Of a stretch of 64,000 bases of DNA, positions 48,035 to 49,731 are shown piece after piece. The position numbers were made by a program, and so were the translations under genes. Position 1 is the first letter of the stretch; each line of letters starts with the position of its first letter. Source of the DNA: Alkalispirochaeta sp. (GTDB lineage: Bacteria > Spirochaetota > Spirochaetia > DSM-27196 > Alkalispirochaetaceae); contig OZ271854.1 of assembly GCA_965601925.1 (NCBI GenBank), positions 4,864,001 through 4,928,000 of the forward strand, in the 5' to 3' direction. The notes beneath the pieces are model-generated. The model made no database searches and was not told where the DNA came from. It saw nothing but the letters and a program-made list of their open reading frames with translations.

Positions 48035-49348
48035 TCAGACATAGTAGCGGACCTCGCGTCCTCGCGGCACGAGCAAGAGCTCGTCGCCCGCGAGTTCGTT
48101 GTACTCGATGCATTCGTCCAACCGATCGAGGCTGCCGAAGAGCTCCACGGCGAGATGAATCGGCGTCGTGTCGCCCTCCAGTACTACGGTGCGCTCCGTG
48201 GGAAGCGCCAAAGCTCCATCCACGAGGGCACCGACCGCGGTAGCCATGATCGCCGCACCGTCGCGCGAGATGTCGTACGTCGGCACCCCCATGCCCTCGG
48301 CGAGGGCGTTCATCTCCCCCGCCAAAGACCGCAACTCTTCCACGGCGTTAACCGCCTCGGCGCGGGTACGAATCGGACGCTCCCCCTCGCCACCGCCGTC
48401 CAACCCCGCAACCGCCGCCTCGCTTACCGCCCCCTGGAGCGCGTAGATCTGCGCGACGGACAAGAGTCCGACCGTCCGGGCGGAGGCGATCTCATCGGCG
48501 TTCATGCGCCGGCGCTCGGCCTCCGTTGCGATATTGCGGCCGACGATCGCCGCTGCGCCGGCGGTCGGAGAGGTCAGCGCCTCGTGCAACTGGGAGAATA
48601 CCGCGCGATAGCCCGCGATCTTCTCCCGGACGTTGGTAATAGTTGTGGCGGGAATGCGATAGAGGCGCAAAAAGCTCTGGGCGAGGGCAACGGGGCTCCG
48701 GATCAGCCCCTCGATGTCGCGACTCATCGCAACGACCGCCGACTCCAACCCTCCCCGTACATCCTCGGCGAGGCCGGCGATCGCCGCAAGCTCGCGCCGC
48801 GCCGCCTCGAGTCCGCCCGCCACACTCTCGCGAAGGGCGGTCAGAGCCGACGGGTCGATGATCTCGGCGGAAGCCAAGGACGAAACGACGCTTTCGGCCA
48901 ACCTCGTGATACCGGCGGCGACCGCCTCATCGGCGGCGATGCGCGAGATAAGGTACTCGAACTTGCGCGAATCGGCGGCGACGAACTCCACCGAAAAGAG
49001 GGCACGCCCCACGCCGTTAAGAAAATGTTCGCTCTGTTGCCACGAGACCGGAAGGACTCCCTGAACGCCCCACCGCGGATGGTCGAGTACGCCCGGCCCC
49101 GCCTCATCCAACGCCGCGGCGAACCGATCCGCCTCCCGATCGTAATCGGGCCCCGAGATGTAACAGGTGACCGGATAGCGCTTGATCGCCTCTCCCAGAT
49201 CCTGGATACCGCCGGAGTTTTCGCCGACGTACTCGCTCACCACCGTGTTGCGGCCCCCGGAGCGCGTCAACTCGTCGAACTGCAGCACGAAGGTCTCGCC
49301 CGAGGCGGTGGTGTAGCGGAACGTTCGCAGGCGATCCGTGGCGCTCAC
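48035..49348 (-). CDS. Mu gp43-like (DNA circularisation N-terminal domain) tail protein
   Basis: EY......IQDLG and GPDYD..ADRF..AL...GPGVLDHPRWG motifs; LysM-like C-terminus. Confidence 0.88.
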   Translation of the reverse strand: MSATDRLRTFRYTTASGETFVLQFDELTRSGGRNTVVSEYVGENSGGIQDLGEAIKRYPVTCYISGPDYDREADRFAAALDEAGPGVLDHPRWGVQGVLPVSWQQSEHFLNGVGRALFSVEFVAADSRKFEYLISRIAADEAVAAGITRLAESVVSSLASAEIIDPSALTALRESVAGGLEAARRELAAIAGLAEDVRGGLESAVVAMSRDIEGLIRSPVALAQSFLRLYRIPATTITNVREKIAGYRAVFSQLHEALTSPTAGAAAIVGRNIATEAERRRMNADEIASARTVGLLSVAQIYALQGAVSEAAVAGLDGGGEGERPIRTRAEAVNAVEELRSLAGEMNALAEGMGVPTYDISRDGAAIMATAVGALVDGALALPTERTVVLEGDTTPIHLAVELFGSLDRLDECIEYNELAGDELLLVPRGREVRYYV

Positions 49349-49731
49349 GGTTTTGCCGTCCCGTAACCGGTATATATGGTGACGCCGTGGGCACTCCCCC
49401 TCCGTCGGAGGCGCGTTCCGGCGGGCAATGCCACGTTAATGTCGACGACGTGCCGCTCCTCGTTGTAGACCCGCGACTCGACGGTGCGGCCGACGCCTTC
49501 TCCATCACCGCCCGTGACTTTCGGTAGACGTACGCCGGCTGCATCGGTCGCGTCGCCCGGGGCGCCGGCGCGTCCGCTCGACGCGGGGCTCTCGTGGGAG
49601 GGCGACGGCGAGGAGGTCCCGGCCGCGTCCGACGAGGCGCTCGGCGTCGTACCGGCCCCGGACTGCTCCACGGGCGGCACCTGCCCGGCGGCGCGATCGA
49701 ATGCGTCGAAGACGGTACTTACCGCCGACAT
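49345..49731 (-). CDS. Miniature tape-measure-like protein (~128 aa)
   Basis: Sits in the tape-measure slot; termini VSTVFDAFDR and VVDINVALPAGTR...G.TIYTG resemble tape-measure ends; Ser/Ala/Pro/Gly-rich middle; GTGA overlap with gp43. Confidence 0.55.
   Translation of the reverse strand: MSAVSTVFDAFDRAAGQVPPVEQSGAGTTPSASSDAAGTSSPSPSHESPASSGRAGAPGDATDAAGVRLPKVTGGDGEGVGRTVESRVYNEERHVVDINVALPAGTRLRRRGSAHGVTIYTGYGTAKP

Follow-up and report, generated by a model that had tools for sequence, protein, structure and literature searches.

The window, the whole 64,000-nucleotide stretch of an Alkalispirochaeta sp. contig that was analysed, contains an operon for a Mu-like contractile tail (38010-53277, minus strand). 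The operon is intact and tightly packed, and all tail genes are full length compared with those of relatives. From 53277 down to 38010, the genes encode a small protein, the protein of the terminator slot, sheath, tube, chaperone G with its T-run and extension, a short protein that we refer to as the stub, and gp43. These are followed by wedge J, gp48, two fibres, hub, spike, gp46, a second J, a second gp48 and an FG-GAP fibre. The features, including two flanking genes on the plus strand, are as follows.

53586..56198, plus strand: 870-aa protein, candidate payload, with a conserved N-terminal half that has a repeated domain and a variable C-terminal half that has two hydrophobic segments
53017..53277, minus strand: small basic protein, 86 aa, first gene of the operon; no family match
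52356..52976, minus strand: probable tail terminator, 206 aa, in the Mu gp37 position; 25-35% identity to the same-slot gene of related prophages
50869..52359, minus strand: tail sheath, Mu gpL-like, 496 aa (phrog_165, E 1e-90)
50486..50869, minus strand: tail tube protein, 127 aa (phrog_4699, E 9e-16)
49942..50424, minus strand: tail assembly chaperone G (PF10109, E 2e-7)
49769..49915, minus strand: chaperone extension, GT / P2 GpE'-like (phrog_6416, E 5e-5; PF06528, weak)
49732..49788, minus strand: possible 19-codon N-terminal extension of the stub, to 147 aa (GTG start with Shine-Dalgarno site)
49345..49731, minus strand: predicted stub tape measure, 128 aa, with N-terminal motif (residues 1-14), S/A/P/G linker (15-81) and conserved C-terminal segment (82-128)
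48035..49348, minus strand: gp43-like tube initiator, 437 aa (PF07157, phrog_184)
46865..47977, minus strand: baseplate wedge J (gp47-like), copy 1 (PF04865)
46260..46886, minus strand: gp48-like wedge protein, copy 1 (PF10076)
45178..46254, minus strand: tail fibre 1 (phrog_9777)
44106..45137, minus strand: tail fibre 2, a paralogue of fibre 1 (42% identical)
42861..43931, minus strand: gp44-like hub (PF21683, PF22255, PF21929)
42235..42855, minus strand: gp45-like spike (PF06890, weak; same slot and 32-44% identity in 19 relatives)
41833..42231, minus strand: gp46-like wedge / sheath initiator (PF07409)
40373..41836, minus strand: baseplate wedge J, copy 2, 487 aa, with an insertion (PF04865)
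39797..40363, minus strand: gp48-like wedge protein, copy 2 (family match)
38010..39800, minus strand: tail fibre 3, seven FG-GAP repeats (PF14312, E 6e-89)
35025..35885, plus strand: fourth tail fibre gene, its N-terminus 63% identical to that of fibre 3

Note that the 206-aa protein matches no family, and its probable role as terminator is read from its position. The chaperone extension is in the frame reached by a -1 shift at the T-run, and this frame is open from the T-run to 49769. The slippery T-run is kept in the window and in all 11 relatives printed. Terminase, portal, capsid and integrase genes, which define a prophage, were not recognised in the cluster; it therefore falls outside that category. 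Regulatory genes, an AAA+ loader or other ATPase and a T6SS-type membrane complex were not recognised in the cluster either, and no holin/endolysin or other lysis gene was recognised in 34983-56909. No attachment-site repeat was found around the cluster.

The slot between chaperone G/GT and gp43 is the tape-measure position, and the stub fills it. An earlier, sequence-only reading had claimed that a slot of ~420 bp holds only an ORF of ~128 aa, overlapping the start of gp43. The coordinates bear this out. The ORF has 128 codons from an ATG start (49345..49731, minus strand) and shares 4 nt at its stop with the start of gp43 (49348), which is 420 bp away from the point where the chaperone extension stops (49769). 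Both terminal motifs are present, including the N-terminal VSTVFDAFDR. The low-complexity linker of the same reading is also there: S, A, P and G make up 64% of residues 15-81 and hydrophobic residues 9%, compared with 32% and 33% for the centres of long tape measures. A longer ruler, made by fusion or frameshift, was considered and rejected; the slot, bounded by the chaperone extension and gp43, has no space for it. The predicted protein has either 128 or 147 residues. It may be the longer product, since the upstream GTG (49788) has a good Shine-Dalgarno site, while the ATG (49731) has none, and public gene calls begin at the GTG. These calls take the upstream start in the genome itself and in two relatives (147, 147 and 144 aa), and the 19 extra N-terminal residues are similar in all three proteins. 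Searches of Pfam, PHROG and NCBIfam with the stub gave no match, nor did a PDB sequence search, and the AlphaFold model of its C-terminus is of low confidence (pLDDT 57).

The claim that the stub retains tape-measure-like ends calls for comparison with long rulers. Scans with a sheath alignment gave 84 loci, of which 29 have both sheath and gp43; every one of these 29 has a long ORF in the ruler slot. We kept 26 distinct long rulers (421-624 aa), dropping one distant locus (1555 aa) and duplicates. All six of the long rulers tested match tape-measure PHROGs. A profile of the 26 aligns with stub residues 82-125 (23.4 bits, pairwise E 1e-9) and, in the six-frame translation of the genome, has the stub as its sole match at E<1 (E 3e-5). 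The match to residues 4-19 is weak (0.9 bits, pairwise E 0.008). It is in register: the Phe and the Asp on which it falls are conserved in ≥90% of the 29 rows. The two matches lie at the two ends of the profile; in its middle, no alignment was found between the stub linker and any long ruler centre. The reverse search, with a profile of the short proteins against 1.84 billion proteins, returned eight matches: three short forms, three long tape measures (425, 505 and 462 aa, found via the same C-terminal segment), one ruler fragment (a 123-aa protein, evidently a piece of a long ruler) and one unrelated repeat protein. Judged by these profile searches, the C-terminal homology between the stub and long tape measures is beyond chance. 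The claim thus holds for the C-terminus and may hold for the N-terminus, and the absence of any such homology, named by the sequence-only reading as a ground for dropping it, was not what we found.

Each of the 26 long rulers has one or more hydrophobic segments of 19 residues, whereas none is seen in the stub. Since the C-terminal segment of the stub is homologous to that of long rulers, its N-terminal motif is in register with theirs, and the middle has no match, we infer that the stub is a long ruler that has lost some 300-500 residues from its centre. By descent and position, the predicted protein is a tape measure, without the helical centre that defines the family. A quick sheath tree groups the window with its two closest homologues in a fully supported clade with a long stem. 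This clade is nested among prophage sheaths and is sister to a group with a 460-aa ruler.

The stub has short relatives. A search limited to proteins of 70-224 aa gave three homologues (76, 64 and 67% identity; 128, 125 and 118 aa from the shared Met) and, in an unrestricted profile search, the matches above E 1e-10 were short proteins only. The sequence-only reading had suggested comparing the lengths of orthologues, and these three are equally short (118-128 aa). It had also named relatives with a full-length gene as a sign of recent inactivation. The related prophages do have long rulers, yet the closest homologues (64-76%) are short; a fresh knockout or recent inactivating deletion is thus rejected. 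Among the stub and its homologues all indels are in frame, with 3 and 10 residues lost from the linker. Invariant columns number 48 of 61 in the ends (13/14 N-terminal, 35/47 C-terminal) and 16 of 67 in the linker (Fisher p 7e-10, indicative given four related rows). Two further short forms, more distantly related (132 and 123 aa), retain the C-terminal segment and have an S/T/G/A/P-rich low-complexity centre; their contigs are 955 and 550 bp long, so that these proteins may be truncated. Compared with the window, contigs from a second study (depth 2-4) have 19 synonymous and 7 non-synonymous changes across six tail genes. The expected synonymous share is 27% and the excess is significant (p 1e-6), for a relative whose low depth allows errors and whose pieces barely touch the stub. 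Together, the conserved short size and the synonymous excess resemble purifying selection.

Collapse of the assembly, another concern of the sequence-only reading, is rejected. In each of two runs a single contig spans 46000-54000 with zero differences. Equally short proteins from separate assemblies are the stronger argument, since both runs are from one sample and may be the window's own source. A loose contig end within the stub gene (run X3), considered as a longer allele, matches an unrelated gene elsewhere in the genome and is probably a chimeric read. We conclude that the stub, so far as sequence comparison can tell, is real, conserved in size and under selection, and that it is part of a headless tail cluster.

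The head genes missing here are present in the related prophages. Among 14 long-ruler loci, picked for their long upstream flanks, all have a major capsid gene and 12 also have terminase and portal. Searched against the genome, the head proteins of these prophages gave two protease matches (probably host ClpP) and one weak portal match (E 0.009). The head genes detected in the genome sit in a siphovirus-type prophage separate from the cluster, which has an integrase and a 773-aa ruler of its own; note that PF10145 and PF03237 fail to detect the head genes of this prophage. The genome also has a second headless tail cluster, with a tape measure of 463 aa. An amidase gene is present in that second cluster. 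No telling promoter motif shared between the two tail clusters was found.

Sheath homologues at 76-80% identity exist. A search of 98 other genomes of the order, among them 16 congeners and many fragmented assemblies, did not find the cluster. Likewise, the stub was not found in 400 genomes of the phylum, most of them fragmented. No locus of a short homologue was found in viral contigs, or in the order, class and phylum samples, and scans of genomes and metagenomes with sheath patterns gave long rulers only, wherever the ruler slot was covered. The pairing of a short ruler with a headless cluster is thus seen in one genome. Absence from the 98 genomes of the order would count against long-term domestication in the lineage.

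Across an AT-rich gap, and transcribed away from the tail operon, lies the gene for the 870-aa protein. The sole full-length homologue found, in a length-limited search, has 890 aa; the first 405 residues are shared at 65% and 28 of the 29 initial residues are identical. The C-terminal half of the homologue has an M23 peptidase and another domain, where the 870-aa protein has a helical region with two hydrophobic segments. The shared N-terminal half has two copies of a ~120-residue domain. This domain recurs towards the end of a 2,848-aa protein and, within arrayed gene pairs that alternate, in two other genomes of the class (400 searched). The predicted layout is that of a polymorphic effector, the pattern of conserved N-terminus and variable C-terminus being seen in two sequences (870 and 890 aa). 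The protein may be a payload of the tail, to which it is linked by adjacency only. The AlphaFold model of its C-terminal half has a pLDDT of 37. Atlas matches of the protein (DUF637, PT-TG) are below 0.9, and are leads.

We compared the cluster with known systems; sources marked 'in part' are cited from the accessible portion of their text. Gene order and families are common to the window cluster and the tail module of phage Mu (gp37-gp49, with gp42 as ruler). Unlike the Mu module, the window cluster is headless and has duplicate wedge and fibre genes, some of them shifted to precede the hub; its ruler has 128-147 rather than 690 aa, with a low-complexity centre and without membrane segments. 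The nearest relatives are spirochaete and sediment prophages with a lambda-like head and a Mu-like tail (loci L003-L068). They share tail gene order and ruler ends with the window, and their sheaths are 38-54% identical to its own, but they have terminase, portal and capsid, and rulers of 421-624 aa with hydrophobic segments. R-type tailocins have long rulers, tails of >100 nm and linked holin/endolysin genes, and kill by piercing both membranes. Like these tailocins (R-pyocins and related particles), the window cluster encodes a headless, phage-derived contractile tail with fibres. Its set of contractile tail genes is complete, and head or packaging genes are absent from it, but no lysis cassette was recognised, and the cluster was not found in the 16 congeners or the 98 order genomes, many of them fragmented. 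The extracellular systems known as eCIS (PVC, Afp, MAC, AlgoCIS) are also headless contractile particles, and their cargo has a conserved N-terminal and a variable C-terminal part, for which there is a candidate here. A further likeness to the stub is the eCIS ruler, with mixed ends and a removable centre (bioRxiv 10.64898/2026.05.27.728243, in part). However, the structural genes of the window match Mu-like families only, and neither an AAA+ loader nor a DUF4157 domain was recognised. Streptomyces CIS (Tme, Sle1) similarly link the roles of ruler and payload in a headless tail (PMC11126660, PMC13277306, both in part). The change is the opposite one: there a large ruler-like protein bears an effector domain, whereas here the ruler is stripped and any payload is a separate gene.

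The AlgoCIS ruler has 526 aa for 121 nm, and an engineered short form is still 89 nm (bioRxiv 10.64898/2026.05.27.728243, in part). Phage satellites swap in a ruler of their own, of 582 aa (bioRxiv 10.1101/2025.01.29.635557, in part), and the "minimal myophage" Pam3 has a ruler of 588 aa and a tail of 84 nm (PMC9942802, in part). The accessible part of PMC13585406 contains no short-ruler example. In the portions of the literature searched, most subscription papers lying outside the search, we found neither a ruler of this kind nor a tailocin from a spirochaete. We conclude that the window cluster would be tailocin- or eCIS-like in its working and is built from a Mu-type tail. It is outside the formal definition of R-type tailocins, having no linked lysis cassette and not being lineage-wide, and outside that of eCIS, having different structural genes and no loader.

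On balance, our data make it somewhat probable that the stub, within its intact headless Mu-like operon, serves a very short tailocin- or eCIS-like injector, in which two anchors and a disordered tether would set a length of ~5-9 rings. The C-terminal segment would plug the hub and spike and let the baseplate assemble, as the C-terminus of Mu gp42 does. In Mu, the ruler C-terminus binds hub and spike, and spike association is weak without the ruler (PMC11915804, in part), which would explain why this segment of the stub is kept. Tube polymerisation around the linker would then continue up to the N-terminal motif, and the tube would be capped by the terminator. Measuring seems to have been kept too, since the N-terminal motif, a length held within ~10 residues, G/GT and the terminator-slot gene are all retained. 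A pure plug would have no need of the N-terminal motif, or of a linker held within ~10 residues.

A straightened disordered chain covers ~0.35 nm per residue, at which the linker alone spans 23-30 nm. Mu has 30 rings, a rise of 3.5 nm and a 690-aa gp42 (PMC11915804, in part). Applied to the stub, the Mu ratio gives 19.5-22 nm, or ~6 rings; the prophage relatives come to 64-95 nm. At 0.229 nm per residue, the ratio of AlgoCIS, the stub would reach 29-34 nm (bioRxiv 10.64898/2026.05.27.728243, in part). Hence, the predicted tail would be ~20-22 nm long at the Mu ratio, and up to 30-35 nm with the linker straight (~5-9 rings, against 30 in Mu). Sheaths contract by about half their length. For this reason, the short sheath would extrude roughly 10-15 nm of tube, plus the spike. 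After the fibres had bound a target cell, such a stroke would cross the outer membrane and hardly more of the envelope, which fits the loss of membrane-spanning segments from the stub. The thin tether would leave the lumen mostly empty, with a capacity of at most 1,900-3,300 residues (assuming a 2-nm radius): enough for the tethers and one or two 870-aa chains. In the weakest step, the adjacent 870-aa protein may be the payload, acting in or from the periplasm.

The sequence-only reading had offered either an extremely short tail, or ruler-independent length control with a free lumen. Since every part of the ruler mechanism is retained, we favour the short tail. Nor do the two options exclude each other: even in a short tail, the lumen would stay free around a tether that is thin and disordered. 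The headless cluster, the lost membrane segments and the adjacent candidate payload gene go beyond that reading. A fuller version, which we put forward tentatively as possible, is a natural, minimal contractile injector: it would have 5-9 rings and, in place of a helix bundle, a stretched disordered tether as its ruler (~10 residues per ring). This would be a syringe of periplasmic depth, with the tape measure split into a stub that sets geometry and a swappable payload gene, bearing a peptidoglycan peptidase in one relative and a helical membrane-seeking domain here.

Published work bears on the short injector in both directions. An eCIS with the helical centre of its ruler deleted forms shorter, discrete particles; yet shorter AlgoCIS particles carry less cargo, and delivery to the E. 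coli cytoplasm was achieved only by the lengthened one (bioRxiv 10.64898/2026.05.27.728243, in part). For the siphophage TP901-1, extrapolation puts a tail of zero length at 127 residues (PMC5099701, in part). For these two reasons, the stub tail may be too short to work. Note that TP901-1 is a siphophage with larger terminal parts, while the conserved ends of the stub total ~61 residues. Also against the short injector, the chaperone normally coats a helical ruler (bioRxiv 10.64898/2026.05.27.728243, in part) and the stub leaves little helix to coat.

That missing helix, gone from the linker, also favours a different account, which we think rather unlikely: the stub merely seeds and plugs the baseplate, while the payload protein as a second ruler half, subunit supply or cell width sets the length of long or variable particles. 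The C-terminal plug is the best conserved part of the stub, and Mu baseplate assembly depends on its counterpart. The 870-aa protein and its 890-aa homologue are nearly equal in length despite different C-terminal halves (n=2, from a length-limited search). Their shared N-terminus has a short motif like one in the stub C-terminal segment, which, as defined post hoc, occurs 13 times in 7.7 million six-frame residues. Streptomyces CIS have tape-measure-related cargo in particles of ~200-300 nm (PMC11126660, PMC13277306, both in part). Yet a plug leaves unexplained the N-terminal motif, with 13 of its 14 positions invariant, the length constraint, G/GT and the terminator-slot gene. Furthermore, the N-terminal half of the 870-aa protein is made of small repeated domains, with no long coiled coil, and no T6SS-type membrane complex was recognised in the cluster. 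That the tail is near-tubeless, a baseplate with one or two rings serving as a fibre-bearing adhesin or sensor without useful contraction, is highly improbable. The TP901-1 intercept of 127 aa (PMC5099701, in part) would suit it, as would the expanded fibre set, one member having FG-GAP repeats. However, sheath and tube are intact and conserved (sheath homologues at 76-80%), and conserved ends of only ~61 residues leave at least 67 as spacer.

Loss of function would fit the patchy distribution (cluster in none of the 98 order genomes, stub in none of the 400 phylum genomes), the long branch to the sheath clade of the window, and the fact that neither lysis nor regulatory genes were recognised. 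On such grounds the cluster could be a decaying prophage tail, made useless by a single ancestral deletion and persisting without function. We consider this improbable, since not one tail gene is broken, short homologues that differ by 24-36% keep frame and ends, changes from the close relative are in synonymous excess, and wedge and fibre genes were duplicated rather than lost. An anti-phage decoy, with stub tails or stub rulers entering the virions of related phages with Mu-like tails and making them non-infectious, is very improbable. Spirochaetes do harbour related temperate phages, the stub retains both assembly interfaces without the membrane segments thought to serve DNA passage, and phage satellites interfere at the tape-measure step (bioRxiv 10.1101/2025.01.29.635557, in part). 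Against this, a decoy needs neither four fibre genes nor two wedge sets, and identity between the tail proteins and their counterparts in known prophages does not exceed about 55%. The least probable account has a long tape measure acting in trans, leaving the stub as an adaptor or vestige. The genome does have two others (463 aa in the second headless cluster, 773 aa in the siphovirus-type prophage). Each, however, sits with its own chaperone, tube and tip genes, the profile of 26 long rulers finds neither, and ruler ends are matched to their hub.

In the usual model, the ruler is a long helical protein, coated by chaperone, that sets tail length and later helps to cross the inner membrane. 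A whole tail kept with only the ends of its ruler is a natural marking of the parts needed for assembly, and the stub tests whether a disordered chain can serve as a ruler. Either outcome would be new. If the tail is long, its length control, though phage-type, would be independent of the tape measure. If it is ~20-35 nm, it would be at most a third of the solved myophage tails of Mu (105 nm) and Pam3 (84 nm), figures taken from partly accessible sources, and would set a floor for how short a working contractile stroke can be. For protein delivery, so small an injector with its lumen open would be of interest.

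The 870-residue protein encoded beside the tail operon is a candidate payload. Its gene, and other sites relevant to it, are as follows.

Window 53586-56198, plus strand: gene for the 870-residue protein, with a conserved, repeat-bearing N-terminal half and a swapped C-terminal half.
Window 53628-53663, plus strand: Val-Asp-Ile motif within this gene.
Window about 49430-49460, minus strand: Val-Asp-Ile motif within the tape-measure stub.
L100:9741-18287 and L101:1021-5251: loci with the repeated domain, in two other genomes of the class.

The G+C content of the gene is below that of the tail operon and drops toward the 3' end. 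A gene for immunity to the 870-residue protein was not recognised. The protein's repeated domain is also found in a 2848-residue protein, as well as in an array where gene pairs alternate, resembling toxin-immunity cassettes. Note that the short Val-Asp-Ile motif, which the stub has in its C-terminal segment and the 870-residue protein at its N-terminus, was spotted after the fact and occurs 13 times in the genome read in six frames.

Further features of the window are listed below.

Window 34709-37816: tRNA-Met gene, fourth fibre, two uncharacterised genes (184 and 120 codons) and a BrnT/CopG-like toxin-antitoxin pair, all at the edge of the cluster.
Window 56341-56417 and about 56974-57050: short repeated stretch, in copies about 630 bases apart, the second inside an adenylate-cyclase-like gene, at its 3' end.

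Two further tail loci are present in the same genome.

L094:3048-15366 (G000:C1:153048-165366), minus strand: second headless contractile-tail cluster.
L102-L104 (G000:C1:3695656-3731801): siphovirus-type prophage.

The second cluster belongs to another family, with a DUF3383 sheath and a Pam3/E217-like baseplate. It has a tape measure of normal length (463 residues), an amidase gene, and housekeeping genes on both sides. A search of 98 other genomes from the order did not turn up its sheath. One stretch is common to its fibre and the FG-GAP-repeat fibre of the window's cluster. The prophage, apparently complete, encodes an integrase, an HK97-like head, a 773-residue tape measure and a 1660-residue tail-tip protein.

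In related prophages L005, L007, L011, L053, L057 and L058, an extra gene of 229-245 codons separates the tape measure from the chaperone extension; a single one of these proteins was checked and had no PHROG match.

While the closest prophages have one wedge set, the window's cluster has two (J and gp48 genes, 38010-47977), one of them relocated ahead of the hub. The cluster also has four fibre genes. Together, the doubled wedge sets and four fibres could permit mixed or alternative baseplates.
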